A stretch of DNA of 8,373 nucleotides from a virus (IMGVR_UViG_2671180432_000009); one strand, 5' to 3'. Positions 1-8,373 are shown, numbered from the stretch's first letter. The notes: generated by a model not told the origin, from the sequence alone. A program made the numbers and translations.

Positions 1-72
1 GGGAAAAATATCATCAGATGGCTGCTTAAAAAAAGAACAAATGGTAGTGTCCGCTATTGCCAGTACACCTCA
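1..72. repeat. Left terminal inverted repeat: 72 bp identical to the reverse complement of 8302..8373
   Basis: Manual reverse-complement of 8302..8373 matches 1..72 exactly; identity ends at position 73 (g versus t). Contains the upstream region and first 10 codons (MVVSAIASTP) of the gene at 8103..8333, here followed by a 21-codon remnant ORF (41..106). Confidence 0.9.
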
Positions 73-81
73 GGATAGCGG

Positions 82-253
82 TCATGTGATGCCGGTTTCC
101 CGGTAACTCAGCACCGGTATCTGAGTCAACGTTTTCTCTACTGGGTCATTTCCGATACGCCCTGCCTGCTGACAGGCTTTCATCACATCTGAAAATATAG
201 CACCCTGACTGATACTGTAGTACCTAAGGTTCCAGAAACTGTGATGTATCCGG
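82..253 (-). CDS. Hypothetical protein, C-terminal 57 codons only (...SDVMKACQQAGRIGNDPVEKTLTQIPVLSYRETGIT*); 5' part lies in the N-run
   Basis: Longest open frame on the minus strand between the N-run and TGA at 84..82; contains 3 ATA and 1 AGG codon. No recognisable family. True start and frame across the N-run unknown. Confidence 0.35.
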
Positions 254-470
254 NNNNNNNNNNNNNNNNNNNNNNNNNNNNNNNNNNNNNNNNNNNNNNN
301 NNNNNNNNNNNNNNNNNNNNNNNNNNNNNNNNNNNNNNNNNNNNNNNNNNNNNNNNNNNNNNNNNNNNNNNNNNNNNNNNNNNNNNNNNNNNNNNNNNNN
401 NNNNNNNNNNNNNNNNNNNNNNNNNNNNNNNNNNNNNNNNNNNNNNNNNNNNNNNNNNNNNNNNNNNNNN
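254..470. other. Run of 217 N (unresolved or masked sequence)
   Basis: Directly visible; ORFs drawn through it in the six-frame track are artefacts of N translation. Confidence 1.
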
Positions 471-734
471 CCATGGTTCTTTCCACCATCTGAAAAATAA
501 TTCTTTAAAATACCTGACATGTAATACAGAAAAAACACAAAACCATACCTTAAATAAAAACCTGATTATCAAGCAGATATGCATGGATAAACTACAAGAC
601 GAGATATAAACCACCCTGCATTTAAATAAACAATAAACAACATCAGAAAAATAATTCTGCTCTATGGTTTACATTCAAAAATATCATTTATACTTTTCAG
701 AACATCACCAGCAAGGCATAAACAAGGAAACTAA

Positions 735-1070
735 ATGAAGTGGATTGTGATTGATACAGTTATCCAGCCATCATGCGGAATATCTTTTTCAGTCATATGG
801 AGTAAAATAAAATTAATAATCTGGTATCAATCGGATGCTTTCTTACCTCCTGAAAGTATATTTACACTGACTCACACAGGCATCATGCTCAATAACAAAG
901 TGCTACCTGTAACCATTTACAACGTAGTACCATTCAATAAAACATTCTGGAATTCAATCAAAAATAGCCAGGAATGCCCTACAAATACAGATAACGTATT
1001 GAATGAATGCTTTAATAACCGTTGCACTCTGCAAATATGTCCTTATGGACTAAAACAACAAAGTCCATAA
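735..1070 (+). CDS. Hypothetical protein, 111 aa, in an AT-rich island (possible moron gene)
   Basis: Only ORF over 60 codons in the AT-rich stretch 480..1100, where stop codons are frequent by chance. AAGGA Shine-Dalgarno about 7 nt upstream of ATG 735. 6 of 111 codons are ATA. Five Cys in the C-terminal half. No family recognised. Confidence 0.45.
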
Positions 1071-1104
1071 GGAGTTTACTCACATCTGACAAAATCAATA
1101 TAAA

Positions 1105-1126
1105 CAGCCCCTCCGGAGAGGGGCTG
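1105..1126 (-). terminator. Stem-loop (9-bp stem CAGCCCCTC/GAGGGGCTG, 4-nt loop); probable intrinsic terminator for the minus-strand cargo operon
   Basis: On the minus strand the hairpin is followed by TTTATATTGATTTTG; it lies 76 nt past the stop of the ORF ending at 1202 and between convergent ORFs. Confidence 0.4.
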
Positions 1127-1201
1127 GAGAGTGGCGCTATGTGCCATTGCATGGTGCCGGGTGCCTCCCGGTGAATTCAGTACCAGCACCTGAATCCGCG
1201 A

Positions 1202-1373
1202 TTATCCCATATACCTACTCGCTGATTGCCCCTCCGCACAGGGGGATTCACCATGCCAGTTTCTTTTAACAAACTCCCCGCAAAACAGACAACTGTCAAC
1301 CGTCTGAATTGTGAAGTATTTAAAAATTTCTCCCGCTAACTGATACCCGGCTAACAGTCTGGCGTTTTCTTTT
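1202..1373 (-). CDS. Hypothetical protein, C-terminal 56 codons visible (...KENARLLAGYQLAGEIFKYFTIQTVDSCLFCGEFVKRNWHGESPCAEGQSASRYMG*); interrupted by N-run
   Basis: Open frame from the N-run to TAA at 1204..1202; all three Arg codons are AGA/AGG. A possible N-terminus (MIAYCFCEWHCSSRIMSVLADGVLVA) at 1687..1610 cannot be linked in frame because of the N-run. Confidence 0.4.
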
Positions 1374-1609
1374 NNNNNNNNNNNNNNNNNNNNNNNNNNN
1401 NNNNNNNNNNNNNNNNNNNNNNNNNNNNNNNNNNNNNNNNNNNNNNNNNNNNNNNNNNNNNNNNNNNNNNNNNNNNNNNNNNNNNNNNNNNNNNNNNNNN
1501 NNNNNNNNNNNNNNNNNNNNNNNNNNNNNNNNNNNNNNNNNNNNNNNNNNNNNNNNNNNNNNNNNNNNNNNNNNNNNNNNNNNNNNNNNNNNNNNNNNNN
1601 NNNNNNNNN
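1374..1609. other. Run of 236 N (unresolved or masked sequence)
   Basis: Directly visible. Confidence 1.
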
Positions 1610-1722
1610 CGCCACCAGCACACCGTCAGCCAGCACTGACATTATCCGGCTGCTGCAATGCCATTCACAAAAACAGTAAGCAATCACTTTTTACCGTAAC
1701 AGGTGATAATCCAGATATGTAT

Positions 1723-2076
1723 CTACCCCAGATGAGTAATCCGAAGTTCATCCATACCACAGGTCCTGGCTATTCTGTTGTACTCCTGAACAAGAGCAAA
1801 TAATTCTGAATTAGCAACCATGAACTCATCGCAAACCCTCTGTATAGCATCACTATTCAGAATAATAACGTCTCTTCCCGAAAGACGATCAGGAGTACAG
1901 AACAAAACTGTCAAACGGCTGAAGGCCTTTGCTCGTGCTGCATTGACTATATCAATACGCTGCCTAAGGATGAAACACCCCGACGCCTCATCAATATTCA
2001 CTCTACCCACACCATATGAATGATAAATATTTAATGCTGAAAAAACCATTAGACCGTATAACAAACACTCAATCAA
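1723..2076 (-). CDS. Hypothetical protein, 117 aa from TTG 2076 (108 aa if ATG 2049 is the start)
   Basis: Six-frame ORF; first gene after the tRNA-Arg-like gene in the late direction. 3 AGA, 3 AGG and 3 ATA codons in 117. No clear Shine-Dalgarno at either start. No family recognised. Confidence 0.45.
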   Translation of the reverse strand: MIECLLYGLMVFSALNIYHSYGVGRVNIDEASGCFILRQRIDIVNAARAKAFSRLTVLFCTPDRLSGRDVIILNSDAIQRVCDEFMVANSELFALVQEYNRIARTCGMDELRITHLG

Positions 2077-2186
2077 TACTTAACAGAACTTTTATTTTTG
2101 ACAAACATAAAATATTTTCAACAATATCCTGAGCCAGGTATATTTCAGTATAAGGCTCTGCCGGAAGGAATCTGGAAGAATGAATA

Positions 2187-2262
2187 TGGCGCGCTGTACT
2201 GGATTCGAACCAGTGACCGATTGCTTAGAAGGCAATTGCTCTGTCCGGTGAGCTAAAGGGCC
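2187..2262 (-). tRNA. tRNA-Arg(UCU)-like gene, 76 nt; acceptor stem pairs at only 3 of 7 positions (possible pseudo or hybrid tRNA)
   Basis: Minus-strand read GGCCCTT-TA-GCTC-ACCGGACA-GAGC-A-ATTGC-CTTCTAA-GCAAT-CGGTC-ACTGG-TTCGAAT-CCAGT-ACAGCGC-G-CCA. D, anticodon (UCU) and T arms are canonical; 5' GGCCCTT does not pair with 3' ACAGCGC. Confidence 0.6.
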
Positions 2263-2271
2263 GGGAGCAGA

Positions 2272-2300
2272 ATAATAACGGTCCGTAATTAATTCCGCAA
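2272..2300 (-). promoter_or_regulatory. Putative sigma70 promoter for the tRNA-Arg-like gene
   Basis: Minus strand: -35 TTGCGG (2300..2295), 17-nt spacer, -10 TATTAT (2277..2272), about 10 nt upstream of the tRNA 5' end; homologous to the tRNA-Ile upstream region. Confidence 0.35.
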
Positions 2301-2325
2301 TAAAAAACCCGCTCGGCGGCGGGTT
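2300..2325 (-). terminator. Intrinsic terminator (tR'-like), copy 1
   Basis: Minus strand AACCCGC-CGCCGA-GCGGGTT followed by TTTTAT; identical to the copy at 4196..4221. Confidence 0.6.
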
Positions 2326-2372
2326 GTAGAAACTCTTCTAACGTCAGGCATAAAACGCCCATAGTTATGACG

Positions 2373-2400
2373 AATTTACCACAGATTCCGGAAAAATCAA
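2373..2400 (-). promoter_or_regulatory. pR'-like promoter, copy 1
   Basis: Minus strand: -35 TTGATT (2400..2395), 16-nt spacer, TGG-TAAATT extended -10 (2378..2373); identical to the copy just past the Q stop. Confidence 0.4.
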
Positions 2401-2417
2401 CCTAGTTACCTTTTTTA

Positions 2418-2607
2418 NNNNNNNNNNNNNNNNNNNNNNNNNNNNNNNNNNNNNNNNNNNNNNNNNNNNNNNNNNNNNNNNNNNNNNNNNNNNNNNNNNN
2501 NNNNNNNNNNNNNNNNNNNNNNNNNNNNNNNNNNNNNNNNNNNNNNNNNNNNNNNNNNNNNNNNNNNNNNNNNNNNNNNNNNNNNNNNNNNNNNNNNNNN
2601 NNNNNNN
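2418..2607. other. Run of 190 N (unresolved or masked sequence)
   Basis: Directly visible; lies between the repeat copy and the tRNA-Ile 3' end. Confidence 1.
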
Positions 2608-2615
2608 GTTTGTGA

Positions 2616-2691
2616 TGGTGGCCCTTGCTGGATTTGAACCAGCGACCTGGCGATTATGAGTCGCTCGCTCTCACCACTGAGCTAAAGGGCC
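2616..2691 (-). tRNA. tRNA with CAU anticodon, tRNA-Ile2 (lysidine) type
   Basis: Minus-strand read GGCCCTT-TA-GCTC-AGTGGTGA-GAGC-G-AGCGA-CTCATAA-TCGCC-AGGTC-GCTGG-TTCAAAT-CCAGC-AAGGGCC-A-CCA. Acceptor pairs 7 of 7; one A-C mismatch at the top of the anticodon stem. Closely resembles E. coli ileX and phage ileZ as recalled. Confidence 0.85.
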
Positions 2692-2700
2692 GGGAGCCGC

Positions 2701-2729
2701 ATAATAACGACGCGTAATTAATTCTTCAA
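2701..2729 (-). promoter_or_regulatory. Putative sigma70 promoter for tRNA-Ile
   Basis: Minus strand: -35 TTGAAG (2729..2724), 17-nt spacer, -10 TATTAT (2706..2701), 9 nt upstream of the tRNA 5' end. Confidence 0.4.
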
Positions 2730-2731
2730 TA

Positions 2732-3729
2732 TCATCCGTTCTGGCTGACTAAATCCTGTACTTCCCGAACCGTCTGCTCAAAACGTTCAGTCTCCAGCTC
2801 AACGCCAATTGCACGACGCCCGAGCGCCAGTGCCGCTTTCACTGTCGAACCCAACCCCATGAAAAAATCTGCAATCAGGTCACCCGGACGACTGCTAGCG
2901 CTGATTATCTGCTGCAGCATTTCTGCCGGTTTTTCGCACGGATGTTTCCCGGGATAGAACTGCACCGGTTTATGCGTCCACACATCGGTATACGGCACCT
3001 GCACCGTCACGCCAAAATACCGCCGCAGATGTTTATATTCACTCAGCAGCTCCGCATACTGCCGGTTCAGTGAGGTATACGTATCCACCAGCTGGTGGTG
3101 GAGCTTTTCCAGTTCACCACGCCGATGCTTCTCTTCTGCCACCCGGGCAAACAGCGCCTGTAATTTCAGATAATCGCTTTCATTCGGCAACTGCCACTGA
3201 CCGGCACTGAACCAGTGCGACACCATGTTTTTCTTTCCTGTGGCATCTGCAATCTGTTTTGCCGTTATCCCCAGGGCAGCTCGCGCATCACGAAAGTAAN
3301 NNNNNNNNNNNNNNNNNNNNNNNNNNNNNNNNNNNNNNNNNNNNNNNNNNNNNNNNNNNNNNNNNNNNNNNNNNNNNNNNNNNNNNNNNNNNNNNNNNNN
3401 NNNNNNNNNNNNNNNNNNNNNNNNNNNNNNNNNNNNNNNNNNNNNNNNNNNNNNNNNNNNNNNNNNNNNNNNNNNNNNNNNNNNNNNNNNNNNNNNNNNN
3501 NNNNNNNNNNNNGTTTCAGCACCCGCCAGAACTGCGCCAGACACTGGTCCAGCCACTTCAGGTAATCATCGTCGCCCTTCCACTGGTTATCCCAGCCCTC
3601 AGGCTTCACTTTAAAGTACGGCGGGTCCGTGACTATCAGGTCAACAGAATTTTCGGGTAACGACCGGATAAATTCCAGGCAGTCGGCGTTGATTAACTCA
3701 CAACTGGATATTTTTACAGTATTAAGCAT
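2732..3729 (-). CDS. DNA methyltransferase, beta-class N6-adenine (or N4-cytosine) type; middle part lost in the N-run 3300..3512
   Basis: N-terminal segment (3729..3513) has motif IV DPPY (LIVTDPPYF); C-terminal segment (3299..2732) has motif I FxGxG (DFFMGLGST). The order IV then I indicates beta class. The two segments are in different frames if the N-run length is taken literally. Confidence 0.8.
3300..3512. other. Run of 213 N (unresolved or masked sequence) inside the methyltransferase gene
   Basis: Directly visible. Confidence 1.
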
Positions 3730-3821
3730 GGATCATTAAGCCTGTCTCTGATAGGCTCATTCTGCTTTTGCGCAAAGCAGTGGGCCTGAGGTTTGCTTGT
3801 GAACCCAACGCATGAGCAGAT

Positions 3822-3852
3822 GGCTGGTGGGTGCCCCTAACACCCACCAGCC
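3822..3852. promoter_or_regulatory. Perfect 12-bp inverted repeat (GGCTGGTGGGTG / CACCCACCAGCC, 7-nt loop) upstream of the methyltransferase start
   Basis: Seen directly; no U-tract on either strand, so not a classic intrinsic terminator. Candidate operator or RNA structural element about 90 nt upstream of ATG 3729. Confidence 0.5.
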
Positions 3853-3867
3853 GCCCATTTACCACAA

Positions 3868-3893
3868 ATAAAAAAGCCTTCACTGCGGAAGGC
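3868..3893 (-). terminator. Intrinsic terminator overlapping the stop codon of the small HTH gene
   Basis: Minus strand GCCTTC-CGCAGT-GAAGGC followed by TTTTTTATTT; the TGA stop (3882..3880) sits in the loop and stem. Confidence 0.55.
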
Positions 3894-4077
3894 GTCTGTA
3901 ACAACCGAACTGATAGTCTGCCAGACCCGCCATAACCAGCTGGGTCAGTATTAACTGGCAGCGTTCGCGTGAAAGGTAAGTATTCTGCGCTATCTCCCCG
4001 ACTGTCGCCGGTTCGGTAACGCTTAATTCATTAAACACCACTCTGGCGGTTTCTGTCATATCCTGCTGTTTTAGCAT
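3880..4077 (-). CDS. Small DNA-binding protein with a helix-turn-helix-like segment, 65 aa
   Basis: AAGGA Shine-Dalgarno 6-7 nt upstream of ATG 4077; the segment TVGEIAQNTYLSRERCQLILTQLVMAGL resembles an HTH recognition region. Family not recognised. Confidence 0.5.
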   Translation of the reverse strand: MLKQQDMTETARVVFNELSVTEPATVGEIAQNTYLSRERCQLILTQLVMAGLADYQFGCYRRLPQ

Positions 4078-4195
4078 GTCTTTTCCTTTTCCGGTTAACG
4101 TGACACACCAATAACTCTTGTCGAAAAAGCCAGCAAGCTGAAAGACAGGTATTCACCGCCACCAGCGCGTTTACTGTACTGACGCGATTTCAGTC

Positions 4196-4221
4196 ATAAA
4201 AAACCCGCTCGGCGGCGGGTT
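4196..4221 (-). terminator. Intrinsic terminator (tR'-like), copy 2, about 80 nt past the Q stop
   Basis: Minus strand AACCCGC-CGCCGA-GCGGGTT followed by TTTTATG. Confidence 0.6.
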
Positions 4222-4268
4222 GTAGAAACTCTTCTAACGTCAGGCATAAAACGCCCATCGTTATGACG

Positions 4269-4296
4269 AATTTACCACAGATTCCGGAAAAATCAA
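4269..4296 (-). promoter_or_regulatory. Late promoter (pR'-like) immediately downstream of Q, copy 2
   Basis: Minus strand: -35 TTGATT (4296..4291), 16-nt spacer, TGG-TAAATT extended -10 (4274..4269); the predicted transcript to the terminator is about 65 nt, as expected for a short Q-modifiable pR' transcript. Confidence 0.45.
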
Positions 4297-4301
4297 CCTT
4301 G

Positions 4302-5123
4302 TTACCTAGTTACCTTTTTTAACTGCCGCTCAGCCCATGCTTCTTCAATATCAAACCGGGTCACCAGCGCATCATAAAATTTCTTAACTGTTTTTTCCCA
4401 TGACGCGCGTGTTATCTGGTTTGTCACCTCGCATATAGCATTAAATGCCTCCGTTGATGGTAGTCTTTCATAGCCACGACCACCACAACGCTGGCAGTCT
4501 CTGATAACAGGCATACCACGTTTTACCGACTCTTCACGATGAATGGCGACACCACGCCCACGGCAATCCTTACAGGCGGTGGAAACCTCACCCTTTCCGC
4601 CACACTCCGGACAGGCAACTTTTACCACCTCCCTGACTTTTTTCCATTCTTCCCAGTAAGACGGATACACACCTTTCGTACACTTTGCCCATACCGGCGG
4701 CTTACCATCCGGATACTGGACCTTGTTTGTAAAAACTACGCTTTCAATAAATTTTTCCCCATAGCAACAAGGGCACTGCTTTTTACTCGCTGCGCTGCGG
4801 GCATAATCCTCAAAAGCGTACGAAGCCATAATGCGCATCACTACCGGTTTTATTTCTGCCGGAAGTTTTCTCAACGCCGCCACACGATCGCACCGACTGA
4901 GTGCATAATCTGCCAGTAATTCTGTTGCCCGCGCCCTGTCATTCATACTGATGCCCATTTTCCCCAGGAACGCAGAAAACCCCATCTCAGCCCGATTCTG
5001 TGTCATGCCCTGCGCGGCCATCACATCAGTGATACTCAGCGCATCTTTCGACGTTGAGGCCGATGCATCAGTCAGGCCGGGGGATTTTGGGGAGTAGTAT
5101 TTCGGTAAATCTTCCAGTTTCAT
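4302..5123 (-). CDS. Late-gene antiterminator Q-like protein, 273 aa, with four DnaJ-type CxxCxGxG repeats
   Basis: Position is diagnostic: directly downstream of rusA with an ATGA start/stop overlap and directly upstream of the promoter/terminator unit and tRNA genes. Size fits the long Qin-type Q proteins as recalled. Repeats CPCCYGEK, CPECGGKG, CKDCRGRG, CQRCGGRG are visible. Confidence 0.6.
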   Translation of the reverse strand: MKLEDLPKYYSPKSPGLTDASASTSKDALSITDVMAAQGMTQNRAEMGFSAFLGKMGISMNDRARATELLADYALSRCDRVAALRKLPAEIKPVVMRIMASYAFEDYARSAASKKQCPCCYGEKFIESVVFTNKVQYPDGKPPVWAKCTKGVYPSYWEEWKKVREVVKVACPECGGKGEVSTACKDCRGRGVAIHREESVKRGMPVIRDCQRCGGRGYERLPSTEAFNAICEVTNQITRASWEKTVKKFYDALVTRFDIEEAWAERQLKKVTR

Positions 5124-5500
5124 TTTTTGACCTGCCCTTCAAGCATTATGGGATAAATCTTCACCCCCAGACGTCCACCAGATACTGGCTGAGCACGAAC
5201 GATATTGATTTCATCAAACTGCTCATCGTCCATTAGCAACCCCGCATGCGTCAGCGCATCCAGCGGCGCTTTCAGAATATTGTCCAGGTCACGGCGGCGC
5301 TTATCCGGTGGTTCTGCAATAATTTTTATTGCCAACCTTCCGGACAGGCTTAATTTCAGCCGCTGCTGGCGAACAATAAGCGCCACTGCCCGGCGATAAC
5401 GCTCCCCGGCTTTTGATACAAAATATGTGCTGCCACGACGACGCCAGTAAGTGTTCACCGTCGGCGGGTAAGGTAAAACAAATTCTATGCGCTCGGTCAT
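5120..5500 (-). CDS. rusA: Holliday junction resolvase RusA (crossover junction endodeoxyribonuclease)
   Basis: 126 aa; N-terminal PYPPTVNTYWRRRG and catalytic-region RRRDLDNILKAPLDALTHAGLLMDDEQ closely match the RusA family as recalled; typical position upstream of Q. Confidence 0.9.
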   Translation of the reverse strand: MTERIEFVLPYPPTVNTYWRRRGSTYFVSKAGERYRRAVALIVRQQRLKLSLSGRLAIKIIAEPPDKRRRDLDNILKAPLDALTHAGLLMDDEQFDEINIVRAQPVSGGRLGVKIYPIMLEGQVKK

Positions 5501-6559
5501 TTATGCTTTCCACTTCAGAACACCCGAATTTCTCGCGTGCATTAAAAAACGAATCAGCAACAACAGCTGACTGCCGTGTTTCTCTTCAAAATCTTTTACT
5601 CCGGCATGTAGTTCGTTACGGCATTTACGGCATAACGGAATAACAAACAAATCATCAGCCTTTGTTCCCATCCCTCCCAGTCCATGACCAATGATGTGAT
5701 GCGGATCATCTGCCTGATTGCCACACGTCATGCATTTCTGCGTTTTTACCCAGCGCGTGTATACAGGCATCTCTTCCCGTTGTGATTTCTGGCGCTGGAG
5801 ATACTGAGCCGGTGACTCCGGATCAACGGCAATGCTGACCACCGTCTTTTCCTGTGGTGGGTTCTGTTGCTGGTGGACGTGAGGCAGTAACGCAATATTT
5901 TTTGTGCGCTGCTTCAGTATGCTGGTGGCTGTCTGCTCTCCCGGTATGATGTCGCTTTCACTGTACACAGAGCGAATTTTTTCCGCACGCAACCCCAGCG
6001 AACGACGTAATACCGCTTCCGGTAGCGCGTCCGCCACCTGATTGCGGACCGCCCACCAGGATAATTCAGCCAGAGATAATTCACGCTCCTGCGTACCGCT
6101 TATTGCGTGACCGATGACGTCAATCATCCATGCTGACAGGTTTTGATGAGCAAGTTGCTCGAGTGATTCGGATGTCTGGTCACGCAGCTGGTTGTCGCAG
6201 TGCCAGCACAACACCATTGCGCCGGTACCATAACGGTGAATGACGGTTTCGCTGTGATGATAATCGCCGTGTGGCCACTGGCAGGATTTAATATGGCGCA
6301 ACAGCCAGTCAGACAATGCACCAGCACCACCAGCAGCACGAATCACCCGTGCGTTACTGAAAAACGGCAGCAATGTTTTGTCTTCCACCAGCGGCTGGCG
6401 AGCGGCAGGAACGACCCCGGACGGCAGATTACGCATGCTTTTTGGTTCCGGCTCCACCAGTATTCTGCCGTTATGGAATGCTGACATTGATTCACGGCCT
6501 GGCTTAACGATAACCAGACCGAGTTCCGGTACCAGAACAGGTCGAAGTAATACCCGCAC
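5501..6559 (-). CDS. DUF968-like protein (YdfU-like), 352 aa, Cys/His-rich C-terminal motif
   Basis: Size and position match the YdfU family of Qin-like prophages as recalled; C-terminal CMTCGNQADDPHHIIGHG...CRKCRNELH looks like an HNH or zinc-binding motif. GTG start at 6559 after GGAGG; start uncertain. Confidence 0.75.
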   Translation of the reverse strand: MRVLLRPVLVPELGLVIVKPGRESMSAFHNGRILVEPEPKSMRNLPSGVVPAARQPLVEDKTLLPFFSNARVIRAAGGAGALSDWLLRHIKSCQWPHGDYHHSETVIHRYGTGAMVLCWHCDNQLRDQTSESLEQLAHQNLSAWMIDVIGHAISGTQERELSLAELSWWAVRNQVADALPEAVLRRSLGLRAEKIRSVYSESDIIPGEQTATSILKQRTKNIALLPHVHQQQNPPQEKTVVSIAVDPESPAQYLQRQKSQREEMPVYTRWVKTQKCMTCGNQADDPHHIIGHGLGGMGTKADDLFVIPLCRKCRNELHAGVKDFEEKHGSQLLLLIRFLMHARNSGVLKWKA

Positions 6560-6634
6560 ATTACCTCCAGATCCGTTGCTGGAATGTGCGGGACGGACGC
6601 GTTGGCCGTTCGGAGTAAGGGAGCCTGACGGAGA

Positions 6635-6916
6635 TTATCCAGTGACGGTAGTCGAGGCTAAGGGCTTTTTTAACCTCGCATCCGCGCCTGCGGTAACACT
6701 GAATGAGCCATTCGGCCTGTTCTTCAGTGCATGGGGGATGCTGGTACCAATCAGATTTAAATGCGTGAGAGCGCCGCCCGTGCCTGCTGGCAAAGACGGC
6801 TGAATTATCAGAATTGTGTAGTCTGGAAGGCAGTGGCTGACAATAGCGCCATTCTCAACGCGCACAGTATAGAGGCCATCTTCACTAAAAATTTCACGTA
6901 ATTCTTCGATTTTCAT
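6635..6916 (-). CDS. Hypothetical protein, 93 aa
   Basis: GGAAGGA Shine-Dalgarno 8 nt upstream of ATG 6916 (the ORF track begins one codon earlier at TTG 6919); sits between the hok terminator and the DUF968 gene. Confidence 0.5.
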   Translation of the reverse strand: MKIEELREIFSEDGLYTVRVENGAIVSHCLPDYTILIIQPSLPAGTGGALTHLNLIGTSIPHALKNRPNGSFSVTAGADARLKKPLASTTVTG

Positions 6917-7039
6917 CAACAGAATCCTTCCAGATAAATAGCACTCCCCTGTTCGGGGTCCATCCCTCTTCTCCCTGCGCGCTACTTAAGTATTTTTGAT
7001 TCTATTCCGGCACCATCTAAAACTTCAAACGCGTTGAAA

Positions 7040-7068
7040 ATAAAAACAAAAACCCGCCGAAGCGGGTT
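7040..7068 (-). terminator. Intrinsic terminator of the hok/mok transcript
   Basis: Minus strand AACCCGC-TTCG-GCGGGTT followed by TTTTGTTTTTATTTT; about 70 nt past the hok stop. Confidence 0.7.
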
Positions 7069-7136
7069 AAGTGTGGGTGCATTGAGGATGCCTGACCCAT
7101 CAGAGGTGGCGAGGGATTTCTCCCCCGCCTGGTCTC

Positions 7137-7292
7137 TTACTCCTCAGGTTCGTAAGCTGTGAAGACAGCGACCTCCGTCTGGCCGGTTCGAATTCGTACC
7201 TCGCAGAGGTCTTTCCTCGTTACCAGTGCCGTCACTATGACGGTTAAACAGATGACGATCAGGGCGATTAACATCGCCTTTTGCTGCTTCAT
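7137..7292 (-). CDS. hok: Hok/Gef-family type I toxin, 51 aa
   Basis: MKQQKAMLIALIVICLTVIVTALVTRKDLCEVRIRTGQTEVAVFTAYEPEE closely matches the Hok/Gef family (HokD/RelF-like as recalled); AGGAG Shine-Dalgarno upstream. Confidence 0.85.
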   Translation of the reverse strand: MKQQKAMLIALIVICLTVIVTALVTRKDLCEVRIRTGQTEVAVFTAYEPEE

Positions 7293-7349
7293 AGCCTGCT
7301 TCTCCTTGCCTTTCGGCACGTAAGAGGCTAACCTAGATTTGCCGTTCAT
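7137..7349 (-). CDS. mok: Mok-like in-frame N-terminally extended reading frame (70 aa) overlapping hok
   Basis: ORF starts 19 codons upstream of hok in the same frame, as in chromosomal mokC/hokC loci as recalled. Confidence 0.55.
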   Translation of the reverse strand: MNGKSRLASYVPKGKEKQAMKQQKAMLIALIVICLTVIVTALVTRKDLCEVRIRTGQTEVAVFTAYEPEE

Positions 7350-7400
7350 AGATTGAGCCTCAGATTAATGTTAAGCGTCTTGCCGGACGCGTAATGTTAA
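7295..7400 (+). ncRNA. Expected position of a Sok-like antisense RNA opposite the mok translation-initiation region (boundaries not resolved)
   Basis: Inference from hok/sok architecture only; a weak plus-strand hairpin GCGTC-TTGCCG-GACGC lies at about 7364..7379. No promoter identified with confidence. Confidence 0.25.
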
Positions 7401-7468
7401 CTGGGGCTTTTCTCTATCTGCCTTTTGGTGTTCATGCCTGAGACAGATAGCCTCAAGCACCCGCTGCA

Positions 7469-7496
7469 ATTCTACTTAACTCTCCTTTTCCCGCAA
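7469..7496 (-). promoter_or_regulatory. Putative promoter of the hok/mok mRNA
   Basis: Minus strand: -35 TTGCGG (7496..7491), 16-nt spacer, -10 TAGAAT (7474..7469), upstream of a leader beginning GCTTGAGGCTATCTGTCTCAGGC that resembles hok mRNA 5' ends as recalled. Confidence 0.35.
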
Positions 7497-7503
7497 ACCG
7501 TTT

Positions 7504-7587
7504 TTATCCCCAGCGGCAAATCGAATACACCACCAGCGCCACCGCCATCGCAATTCCTACCGTTGTTAATGCTTCAGGCCAGGTCAT
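7504..7587 (-). CDS. Putative 27-aa hydrophobic peptide ([27 protein letters not shown])
   Basis: Absent from the ORF track (under 60 aa). ATG 7587 overlaps the TGA of the upstream gene (ATGA); GGAGGA Shine-Dalgarno 9 nt upstream; single predicted transmembrane-like segment. Confidence 0.3.
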
Positions 7588-7928
7588 CGTAAAATATCCT
7601 CCACGCTTATCAGTCCGTTCCGCTCCAGATAACTCATCGCCTTATCCGGTAATTTGCAGTCTGGCTTCGCTTTCCTCAGTTGCCAGGTTAACTGCTTTAC
7701 CAGCATGGTTAACTCATCGACCAGACGCTGATATCCCACTGGTTTGTATTCATGCAATTTACCGGCTGGCTCTGCTGCCAGCGATACCAGTGCGATTTCC
7801 AGAACAGCAATATCCATCTTATATGTGCGGATGATGTCATGGTCGATTGTGCCCGGTATGCACAGTCTCTGTGCTTCAATAGTCTCCTCTGCGTGAGCTA
7901 TTAACTGCTCTCTGGTAAAAGTCGTCAT
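7584..7928 (-). CDS. Hypothetical protein, 114 aa
   Basis: Six-frame ORF; start overlaps the stop of the upstream 55-aa ORF (ATGA); shares an N-terminal MTTxT motif and an IAL-SL-AEP motif with that ORF. Confidence 0.6.
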
Positions 7929-8092
7929 GCCGTAGCCCCTTCTTGATATTTTTCAAACCAGAACACAACCGGCTCTGCTTCCAGCGATGCCAGCGCAATC
8001 CGTGCCAGTTCCATTTGTTCACCACGGGTAAGCCCGTTTTCAAGCGGGTTTTTAATGAACAATTCAATACGTTCTTTGGTAATAGTGGTCAT
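7925..8092 (-). CDS. Hypothetical protein, 55 aa ([55 protein letters not shown])
   Basis: Absent from the ORF track; strong AAGGAG Shine-Dalgarno 6 nt upstream of ATG 8092; stop overlaps the next start. Preferred over the 63-aa ORF at 7876..8067, which is in another frame. Confidence 0.5.
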
Positions 8093-8102
8093 GTGTTACT
8101 CC

Positions 8103-8333
8103 TTAACCCGCAGTGCTTTCAACTGATGAGGGGAACAAAATCTTTTCATCAAACCCTGCATTCATATCATGAACAGCAACACACCAATCCATCGACGAAC
8201 GATTATCAAGAGCCTCCATGATTTCATCCATGCGGCGTAGGTCATACAGGTAAATGCTTTTATCGCCAATGGTGTAAAAGCCAATTTTTTTCGGTGATGG
8301 ATGAGGTGTACTGGCAATAGCGGACACTACCAT
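8103..8333 (-). CDS. Hypothetical protein, 76 aa
   Basis: Six-frame ORF; first gene of the coupled block; its first 10 codons and upstream region lie in the right inverted repeat. Weak Shine-Dalgarno. Confidence 0.5.
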   Translation of the reverse strand: MVVSAIASTPHPSPKKIGFYTIGDKSIYLYDLRRMDEIMEALDNRSSMDWCVAVHDMNAGFDEKILFPSSVESTAG

Positions 8334-8373
8334 TTGTTCTTTTTTTAAGCAGCCATCTGATGATATTTTTCCC
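8302..8373. repeat. Right terminal inverted repeat (partner of 1..72)
   Basis: See 1..72. Confidence 0.9.

Follow-up and report, generated by a model that had tools for sequence, protein, structure and literature searches.

IS600 right ends form the terminal inverted repeat of a Shigella sonnei prophage segment

Gene content of the window

The stretch of DNA considered here (8,373 nt, hereafter the window) begins and ends with the same sequence. The left arm (1..72, plus strand) corresponds to the last 72 nt of the insertion sequence IS600, with 72 of 72 positions identical. Its tip, ...CCTCA, ends at position 72, the body of the element lies to the left outside the window, and the arm includes the 3' end of the transposase gene orfB (1-29, plus strand; stop codon TAA at 27-29). 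The triplet GGA at 73..75 is the inner target-duplication copy of the left IS600, as seen by comparing the closed chromosome L101 with Escherichia coli ATCC 11775 (L097). The flank that it opens (73..253, minus strand; block 1) belongs to a module of non-coding or small-ORF sequence, denoted A, with the tRNA/methylase region on one side and the DUF1737-SASA late gene on the other, in a prophage remnant adjacent to ompW. The flank is 100% identical to L101 and L097 and shows 86% identity to a gene for a 55-aa hypothetical protein of the phages L002 and L099. We also considered whether the left arm interrupts the DUF1737 gene. This is ruled out: the pieces are not collinear in local BLAST, the left flank is the intergenic A module, and DUF1737 starts at 471. 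Likewise, matches of 1,045 nt over 73-1100 in closed E. coli genomes do not represent a native order, but two non-collinear pieces.

A first run of N (217 N, 254..470) separates the flank, which belongs to the ompW locus (L101), from sequence of the IraM locus (L115) of the same species. The latter (blocks 2 and 3, 471..2417) comprises the start of DUF1737, iraM (735-1070, plus strand), DUF3927, a tRNA-Arg(tct) gene (2187-2261, minus strand), the region downstream of Q and the last ~16 nt of a Q gene, with 99.6-100% identity to L115, L114 and L111. It contains a second run (236 N, 1374-1609), which equals 31 nt in L115 and L001. A third run (190 N, 2418..2607) joins the IraM-locus block back to an ompW-locus block, whose pieces (2608..3729) are 99.86% and 99.36% identical to L101. 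They hold a predicted tRNA(CAT) gene (2616-2691, minus strand) and a DNA methyltransferase gene (2732..3729, minus strand; Pfam N6_N4_Mtase) broken by a fourth run (213 N, 3300-3512). This run replaces 274 nt in L101 and L001, a difference of 61 nt that is not a multiple of 3. The first-pass annotation spoke of a segment of 8.2 kb and did not mention the four runs; with them, the segment is not a single continuous sequence.

The remaining genes are all encoded on the minus strand. The antiterminator Q gene (4302..5123), assigned by annotation, contains a patch of paralogue sequence (4721-4979). The nin region (5120..8092), delineated by ORFs from the sequence and the annotation of relatives, consists of rusA (5120..5500), a DUF968 gene (5501..6559), a 90-aa ORF (6561..6833), hokD (7137..7349), a 114-aa ORF (7584..7928) and a 55-aa ORF (7925..8092). 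It is followed by a chimeric ORF of 76 aa (8103..8333) made of IS600 codons and a truncated nin gene. Within this ORF lies the GGA at 8299..8301, the target triplet of the right IS600 junction as found in the intact gene of L098. The right arm (8302..8373) is the inverted last 72 nt (IRR) of a second IS600, again with 72 of 72 positions identical. It includes the 3' end of orfB (8345-8373), and the body of the element lies to the right outside the window. The sequence from 6829 to 8373 is 100% identical to seven closed chromosomes (L101-L103, L105-L108) and to L109.

IS600 ends and their junctions in closed chromosomes

Comparison across the whole window confirms the earlier claim that 1-72 and 8302-8373 are exact reverse complements. 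The repeat is exactly 72 nt long, and similarity stops from position 73 on. The chance expectation for a perfect inverted repeat of this length in random sequence of 8.4 kb is ~1e-36 ((8373^2/2)/4^72); the repeat is therefore not accidental. The arms match, at 72 of 72 positions, the IRR end of IS600 copies annotated in RefSeq: the 72-mer is the last 72 nt of the element (right end, orfB-proximal), including the final 29 nt of the transposase gene. IS600 is an IS3-family element with a complete length of 1,264 bp, TG...CA tips and a 3-bp target duplication; on the outward strand the IRR tip reads 5'-TGAGGTGTACTGGCAATAGCGGACAC and thus has the expected form. The transposase genes orfA and orfB carry the RefSeq annotation 'programmed frameshift', the frameshifted product orfAB combining HTH and rve domains. 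Because IRL and IRR of IS600 are alike over ~27 nt only, both arms represent the same end. The arms are thus two IS600 copies in inverted orientation, with their IRR ends facing inward. The 72-mer is present in 2,665 of 5,426 closed E. coli genomes, at up to 43 places per genome, and at 806 places on plasmids; the overlying genes are annotated 'IS3-like element IS600 family transposase'.

Neither window junction was found uninterrupted in any closed E. coli genome, with matches ending exactly at 72 and 8301. Both junctions are found exactly in at least eight closed chromosomes of Shigella sonnei type (HE616528.1 being S. sonnei strain 53G), each junction with a complete IS600. These copies measure 1,264 bp and encode products with HTH_Tnp_1, HTH_21, rve and rve_3 domains, while the window itself holds 72 nt of each. 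Eight of the ten long loci shown contain both junctions as two inverted 1,264-bp copies 6,365 bp apart. In the closed chromosomes L102 and L107 the left copy is absent. In L101, for example, the left-junction element occupies 16398-17661 and the right-junction element 8769-10032. The earlier suggestion that the segment is flanked by inverted repeats in genomes therefore holds for eight closed chromosomes, with the correction that the repeats are complete IS600 elements and not starts of the gene at 8103..8333.

The left copy is a simple insertion into an intergenic site with a 3-bp duplication of GGA. In L101 the window strand reads ...CCGCTATCC, IS600, TCCTTCCAGG, with GGA on both sides; in E. 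coli ATCC 11775, where the site is intact, the sequence is GGGCCTGGAA-GGA-TAGCGG. The duplication, TCC/TCC on the opposite strand, is found in L101, L103-L106 and L108-L110, and a reference copy of IS600 in L003 has GCG/GCG. At the right target site the intact gene of L098 reads GGTGAT-GGA-TAGCGATCAAG. The right copy has no target duplication, its outer flank being TTT and not GGA/TCC, which we attribute to a later rearrangement of the outer side. We rejected the idea that the left copy gave rise to the right junction by replicative intramolecular inversion, since on both sides the left copy still has its native flank and the target duplication.

The right copy split an 87-aa gene of the nin region in codon 22 and thereby created the in-frame chimera at 8103..8333. 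IS600 contributes codons 1-10 and the first part of codon 11 (8302-8333); the remainder consists of half of the junction codon and the last 65 codons of the nin gene. The C-terminal 65 aa and the stop are identical to the intact proteins of L098 and L001. The first-pass annotation had seen in the arm the upstream region and first 10 codons of this gene. The ATG (8333) and the 10 codons are indeed present, yet both they and the supposed upstream region are IS600, and what follows them in the ORF is a truncated gene. Databases already contain the 76-aa protein (Q3Z0Y9_SHISS), named as a hypothetical or prophage protein of S. sonnei, and it occurs on 832 contigs. The exact protein is indexed in 795 assembly blocks, 83 of them with contigs >1 Mb. 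Draft contigs that carry it are mostly of 2-5 kb or 5-10 kb, as expected if assemblies break at IS600 and at prophage genes that have paralogues.

The same observations bear on an alternative in which inverted copies of the start of gene 8103..8333 flank the segment, having arisen when the gene start was duplicated or when lambdoid prophages residing in the same genome recombined. In its favour, the window consists of lambdoid prophage DNA, and the arm holds an ATG and 10 codons in frame with this gene. However, the 72 nt are the IRR of IS600 and not phage sequence, and the intact gene has a different N-terminus of 21 codons, its homology halting exactly at the IS tip. A 72-mer that lies under IS600 transposase genes, many times per genome and also on plasmids, does not stem from homology of co-resident prophages, and we regard this origin as next to inconceivable.

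Probable assembly origin of the window

We conclude that the window is very probably a short-read assembly, most likely a scaffold and not a plain unitig, of part of a defective lambdoid prophage beside ompW in S. sonnei, located between two full-length IS600 copies of opposite orientation with IRR inward, and that its ends stop 72 nt into these elements. The perfect terminal inverted repeat is then the IS600 tip. An assembler would be unable to extend through an element present in many identical copies per genome and would halt at either end once a fixed overlap of 72 nt was reached, so that both arms carry the same IRR sequence. The underlying history comprises the simple insertion of the left copy into resident prophage DNA and an insertion of the right copy that cut the nin gene, with its outer side rearranged later.

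The length of the repeat suggests an overlap of k-1 in a de Bruijn graph assembler such as Velvet, with k=73. Both window ends lie at equal depth, exactly 72 nt inside IS600, which is multicopy in these genomes. The first-pass annotation had already proposed a contig bounded by an assembly-graph repeat; this agrees with ends that halt 72 nt inside a repeat whose true length is 1,264 bp, and k=73 would fit. It had set this proposal against a genomic inverted repeat as an either/or, whereas the two are not mutually exclusive and each is partly right. One public pipeline, with which 299 S. sonnei assemblies were made, employs Velvet with k at 66-90% of read length, followed by SSPACE and GapFiller, and its authors caution about false joins; we take this as circumstantial support. 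A scan of contigs with a degenerate pattern for both IS600 tips returned 92 IS600-bearing stretches, none with the window junctions.

The interior of the window points to scaffolding. The N runs appear to be scaffold gaps and are not true to length (236 N against 31 nt in L115 and L001; 213 N against 274 nt in L101 and L001). The sequence 471-2417 was, we infer, falsely joined from a second prophage remnant that also extends from IS600 to Q. In the closed chromosome CP022457.1, blocks 2 and 3 match an IS600-flanked remnant ~0.73 Mb from the ompW locus (IraM locus at 3.36 Mb, ompW locus at 4.09-4.11 Mb). The blocks around the third run are paralogous and not serial: 2249-2417 corresponds to L115 7486-7654, and 2608-2731 is similar to L115 7416-7539. 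The first run is probably a scaffold gap combined with a false join of two loci. Since 471-2417 would be foreign, the true distance between the IS600 copies is probably ~6.4 kb and not 8.2 kb. If the runs are instead masks added afterwards, this strain may be a true recombinant for the IraM block, and the terminal repeat would be IS600 all the same.

The Q gene adds a further mosaic. All 31 differences from L101 within the patch 4721-4979 are bases of L115, and at one edge of the patch the stretch of identity measures only 69 nt. This is too short for path switching in a graph with k=73, hence the assembly used a smaller k or several values of k, or else real gene conversion produced the patch. 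The mosaic Q protein is a common allele (4,300 blocks), and the idea that it is unique to this assembly was dropped: the nucleotide patch does not yield a unique protein. Comparison of the two S. sonnei loci with each other revealed no exact repeats of ~72 nt at the internal block ends.

It is very unlikely that the repeat is a pure artefact, that is, a hairpin or chimeric contig or a palindromic path in the graph, with no real inverted repeat in any genome. In favour of an artefact, the repeat reaches exactly to the two ends of the contig, its length resembles k-1, and the N runs, the probable false join and the paralogue patch in Q testify to other assembly trouble. Against this, independent closed chromosomes contain both junctions with two complete inverted IS600 copies, and a clean target duplication of 3 bp flanks the left copy.

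We also considered IS600, segment and IS600 as a unit, either as a composite transposon or as a cassette whose RecA-dependent inversion would disconnect the late (SASA-holin-lysis) genes from the Q antiterminator. Two inverted repeats of 1,264 bp at a distance of 6.4 kb are a competent substrate for homologous inversion, one copy has recombined with a third IS600 in CP045932.1 (L109), and IS-bounded inversions are reported for S. sonnei. Nevertheless, the segment has a single orientation relative to the SASA flank in all ~25 long contigs examined (a small sample, in which rare RecA-mediated inversion may go unseen), and the window encodes no invertase; its earlier description as an inversion substrate fits the two inverted elements but has no counterpart in an inverted segment among these contigs. 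The outer flanks (...AATTTT and TCCTTCC...) share no duplication, which argues that the unit was not transposed as a whole, and among the genomes considered it was found only at the ompW prophage remnant, with no second genomic site. The left copy's own duplication indicates insertion into resident prophage DNA, this copy is absent from two closed chromosomes (L102, L107), and the prophage itself has decayed to a remnant that carries IS1 and IS600 insertions and whose replication genes are rearranged. A role as a unit is accordingly highly improbable.

Target sites and relation to known systems

The two IS600 targets share the sequence GGATAGCG(G/A)TCA, are identical at 11 of 12 positions and were entered at the same position in opposite orientations. 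The shared sequence matches the inner core of IRR, ATAGCGGACA, at 9 of 10 and 8 of 10 positions. The 5' part left over from the split nin gene is found in closed chromosomes ~3 kb away, in inverted orientation; it starts exactly at the same GGA, with no adjoining IS600. On sequence grounds IS600 might prefer target sites resembling the core of its IRR that binds transposase, such that IR-directed insertion as in IS911 was combined with an IS600-driven inversion of adjacent DNA, although we consider this rather unlikely. As a general property of IS600 the idea was discarded: 3 of 107 flanks reach at least 8 of 10 matches versus 1.5 expected, and no target consensus was found among 16 intact IS600 sites. 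IS911 reportedly undergoes targeted insertion beside IR-like sequences. The targets described here are alike in resembling the IRR inner core and differ in geometry: the motif begins 2 nt from the IS tip, the core 15 nt from the tip inside the IR.

The value of this case is mainly practical. A short contig with a perfect terminal inverted repeat should be checked for an edge in a multicopy IS before it is read as an inversion substrate, and an ORF whose start lies in an arm of this kind can be a fusion of IS sequence and a gene. Short-read assemblies of Shigella are broken up and wrongly scaffolded by IS600 and by paralogous prophage modules; here an apparent segment of 8.2 kb is probably one of 6.4 kb with foreign blocks spliced in. 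The biology itself is established: IS600 copies of S. sonnei disrupt prophage genes and act as substrates of chromosome rearrangement, and the IS600-bounded prophage segment is ordinary and already documented.

For unique DNA between inverted repeat copies, de Bruijn graph contigs are expected to show terminal inverted repeats of k-1, and the window agrees with 72 nt at both ends. It differs from such contigs by the N runs, which most likely mark a scaffold, and by the Q patch, which is hard to fit to a single graph with k=73. IS-flanked inversions have been described in S. sonnei lineages. A flank exchange of this kind is seen in CP045932.1, where the outer flank of the right-hand IS600 is that of the IraM-locus IS600 in other strains, as expected for inversion between inverted copies ~0.73 Mb apart, in contrast to the small bracketed segment of the window, never seen inverted in the ~25 long contigs. 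Finally, IS600 is among five IS families that have expanded throughout Shigella. The arms of the window, at 72 nt per copy, are alike in kind to these chromosomal insertions, the target duplication of the right-hand copy having apparently been lost by later rearrangement.

The terminal inverted repeat

The first-pass annotation described a perfect inverted repeat at the ends of the window, and this observation is confirmed: the sequence at 1-72 equals the reverse complement of 8302-8373 base for base, and the identity breaks off sharply at 72 nt. By our own arithmetic about 1e-36 perfect 72-nt inverted repeats are expected by chance in 8.4 kb, and hence a chance origin is ruled out. The 72-mer is present in 2,665 of 5,426 closed E. 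coli genomes, with up to 43 places per genome and 806 places on plasmids, and the genes that lie over it are annotated as 'IS3-like element IS600 family transposase'. A complete IS600 copy (L003, used as reference) comprises 1,264 bp; its tips are TG...CA, it is flanked by a GCG duplication of 3 bp, and its transposase is frameshifted. Of its two ends, the 72-mer corresponds to the one that adjoins the transposase stop codon, i.e. the right end (IRR). Since the two ends are alike over only ~27 nt, both perfect 72-nt arms are right ends. The arms must belong to two IS600 copies in inverted orientation, with their IRR ends facing inward and their bodies outside the window.

The best matches in the 5,426 closed E. 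coli genomes searched end exactly at 8301, and phage matches begin exactly at 72. When each junction was searched alone, each flank was matched at 100% as far as the edge of its arm, the arm sequence was found at thousands of places, and neither junction was contiguous in any of the 5,426 closed E. coli genomes. IS600 ends were also encountered on contigs of unrelated taxa that are very short or have low coverage (L029, L033, L037, L056 and L066), among them a Streptococcus sanguinis contig of 547 nt, a Streptomyces NODE contig of 1,380 nt with a coverage of 1.3, as well as contigs of Bacteroidetes and other MAGs, apparently through Escherichia/Shigella contamination of those assemblies.

Both window ends stop exactly 72 nt inside a repeat of 1,264 bp, and the same depth at both ends argues for a fixed rule rather than read-dependent breakpoints. 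An assembler would halt at the collapsed IS600 repeat node, and a k-1 overlap with k=73 would leave 72 nt at each end. The proposal of an assembly-graph repeat boundary is thereby supported insofar as both ends stop at equal depth in a multicopy element, while the value k=73 is one that we infer. The 72-nt length is a property of the assembly; the true repeat comprises 1,264 bp. The k-1 reading is compatible with a widely used pipeline of Velvet (k set to 66-90% of the read length), SSPACE and GapFiller, which produced 299 public S. sonnei assemblies and whose authors caution against false joins.

The locus in closed Shigella sonnei chromosomes

The window is the part of a lambdoid prophage that runs from nin through Q to the late operon. 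Its genes lie on the minus strand and encode a hok toxin, a DUF968 protein, RusA, antiterminator Q, a DNA methyltransferase, tRNAs and IraM. The organism is Shigella sonnei (HE616528.1 is strain 53G), and the locus adjacent to ompW is a degraded prophage that carries IS1 insertions too. The ORF at 8103..8333 begins in IS600 and continues into phage DNA, therefore its exact protein marks the right-hand insertion and was used as a marker. Among public assemblies this protein is indexed in 795 blocks, of which 83 include contigs longer than 1 Mb, and it is named 'hypothetical protein [Shigella sonnei]' and 'Prophage protein Q3Z0Y9_SHISS' in the sources (832 contigs).

Both window junctions are exact in 8 of the 10 long loci shown from the ompW region, with a full 1,264-bp IS600 at each and in inverted orientation. 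The interpretation given by the first-pass annotation is therefore supported in part. Closed chromosomes do have inverted copies on both sides of the segment, but these are complete IS elements and not duplicates of a gene start; likewise, the right arm indeed contains the start of ORF 8103..8333, but the first 10 codons of this ORF derive from IS600 and not from the prophage. No inverted form of the small bracketed segment was found among ~25 long contigs read. The distance between the IS copies is 6,365 bp in closed chromosomes versus 8,229 bp in the window.

Probable scaffold gaps and the composition of the window

The four N runs of the window (254-470, 1374-1609, 2418-2607 and 3300-3512, 190-236 nt each), which the first-pass annotation leaves unmentioned, are not length-true and behave like scaffold gap estimates. 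The run at 3300-3512 holds 213 N where a closed-chromosome ompW locus (L101) and a further locus (L001) have 274 nt inside the methyltransferase gene; the run at 1374-1609 holds 236 N where L001 and a locus around iraM (L115) have 31 nt. Identity to the ompW locus is 100% for 1-253, 99.86% for 2608-3299 and 99.36% for 3513-8373. The blocks 471-1373 and 1610-2417, in turn, are 99.6-100% identical to the iraM locus, a second IS600-flanked prophage remnant, and the stretch 471-2417 holds the DUF1737 start, iraM, DUF3927, a tRNA-Arg and the 3' flank of Q. At the place of these blocks closed chromosomes have 429 nt versus 2,354 nt in the window. The iraM locus is located ~0.73 Mb from the ompW locus in CP022457.1 and likewise opens with an IS600 IRR and closes in a Q gene, so that both loci have the same graph neighbours. 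Judged from these matches to a remnant ~0.73 Mb away, the window is probably a scaffold into which 471-2417 was falsely joined from the iraM locus. A caveat to this reading is that, in a comparison of the two loci, none of the internal block ends coincides with an exact repeat between them.

Two further features concern the same region. A 119-nt direct repeat (96%; 2293-2411 versus 4189-4307) is the stretch downstream of Q present twice, once per locus. Near 2249-2256, a stretch of 168 nt that separates the tRNA region from the Q flank in L115 is missing from the third block; a repeat of the tRNA region seems to have been collapsed here.

The Q gene itself (4302..5123) is a mosaic: all 31 of its 31 differences from the Q gene of the ompW locus fall within 4721-4979, and all equal the paralogue of the iraM locus. 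On its two sides the patch borders on 343 nt and 69 nt of identical sequence. It reflects either real gene conversion or a mixing of paralogues during assembly. The shorter border speaks against mixing at a single k=73, as 69 identical nt are too short for path switching in a k=73 graph; real gene conversion, or the use of another assembler, may account for the patch.

The two IS600 insertions

The left copy is flanked by a clean target duplication of 3 bp, which reads GGA on the window strand, and its intergenic target is uninterrupted in E. coli ATCC 11775 (GGGCCTGGAA-GGA-TAGCGG). Given the duplication and the intact site, the left copy is a simple insertion. Two of the ompW loci (L102 and L107) keep the right IS600 and the chimeric ORF, with the left IS600 missing and the site in the adjoining block (window 73-253) intact; the left insertion is thus polymorphic within S. 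sonnei. Both carry another IS600 further downstream, beyond the holin. The intact target in ATCC 11775 (L097) directly follows a GC-rich stem-loop (L097 3960-4000, GGCCCAccggagcggaTGGGCC), a terminator-like hairpin, and the left IS600 insertion lies a few nt further downstream.

The right copy interrupts codon 22 of an 87-aa gene of the nin region. The insertion swaps 65 nt for 32 nt and by chance preserves the frame, which results in a chimeric ORF of 76 aa: codons 1-10 stem from IS600, and the last 65 residues, with the stop, agree fully with the intact protein. The right copy shows no target duplication, and its outer flank falls within a DUF977 gene. The 5' part left over from the split gene is found ~3 kb off in closed S. 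sonnei chromosomes, inverted relative to the 3' part. The inverted piece (L105 6963-8768, also L101 6543-8768) comprises the 5' nin part, DUF4014, a 70-aa ORF, IS1 and part of DUF977. Its start coincides exactly with the GGA triplet and lies beside unrelated DNA, without IS600 there, and its far end adjoins the left end (IRL) of the right-hand IS600. The layout suggests that IS600 drove an adjacent inversion and that one IS copy was lost afterwards, a course that we have reconstructed incompletely. A larger exchange is seen in CP045932.1, where the outer (IRL) flank of the right copy (L109 8749-8768) is the flank normally beside the iraM-locus IS600, as judged against the iraM loci L111-L120 (e.g. 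L115 4330-4349). The right copy and the iraM-locus IS600 lie ~0.73 Mb from each other in CP022457.1, in opposite orientations, and the flank exchange is as expected of a ~0.73-Mb inversion between IS600 copies.

The two targets (window 73-84 and 8299-8301; L097 4000-4015; L098, the intact nin gene, 4200-4211) are identical in 11 of 12 nt, GGATAGCGGTCA and GGATAGCGATCA, i.e. GGATAGCG(G/A)TCA, and IS600 follows directly after GGA at both, the two copies being oppositely oriented. This motif is similar to the inner core of IRR, ATAGCGGACA. IS600 flanks generally lack a preference of this kind: 3 of 107 score at least 8/10 for such IR-like sequence versus 1.5 expected, and 16 intact IS600 sites share no consensus. 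IS911, of the IS3 family, inserts next to IR-like sequences.

The expansion of IS600, IS-disrupted prophage genes and IS-mediated rearrangements are well documented in S. sonnei; the finding is already known, and the chimeric ORF itself is already in reference annotations.
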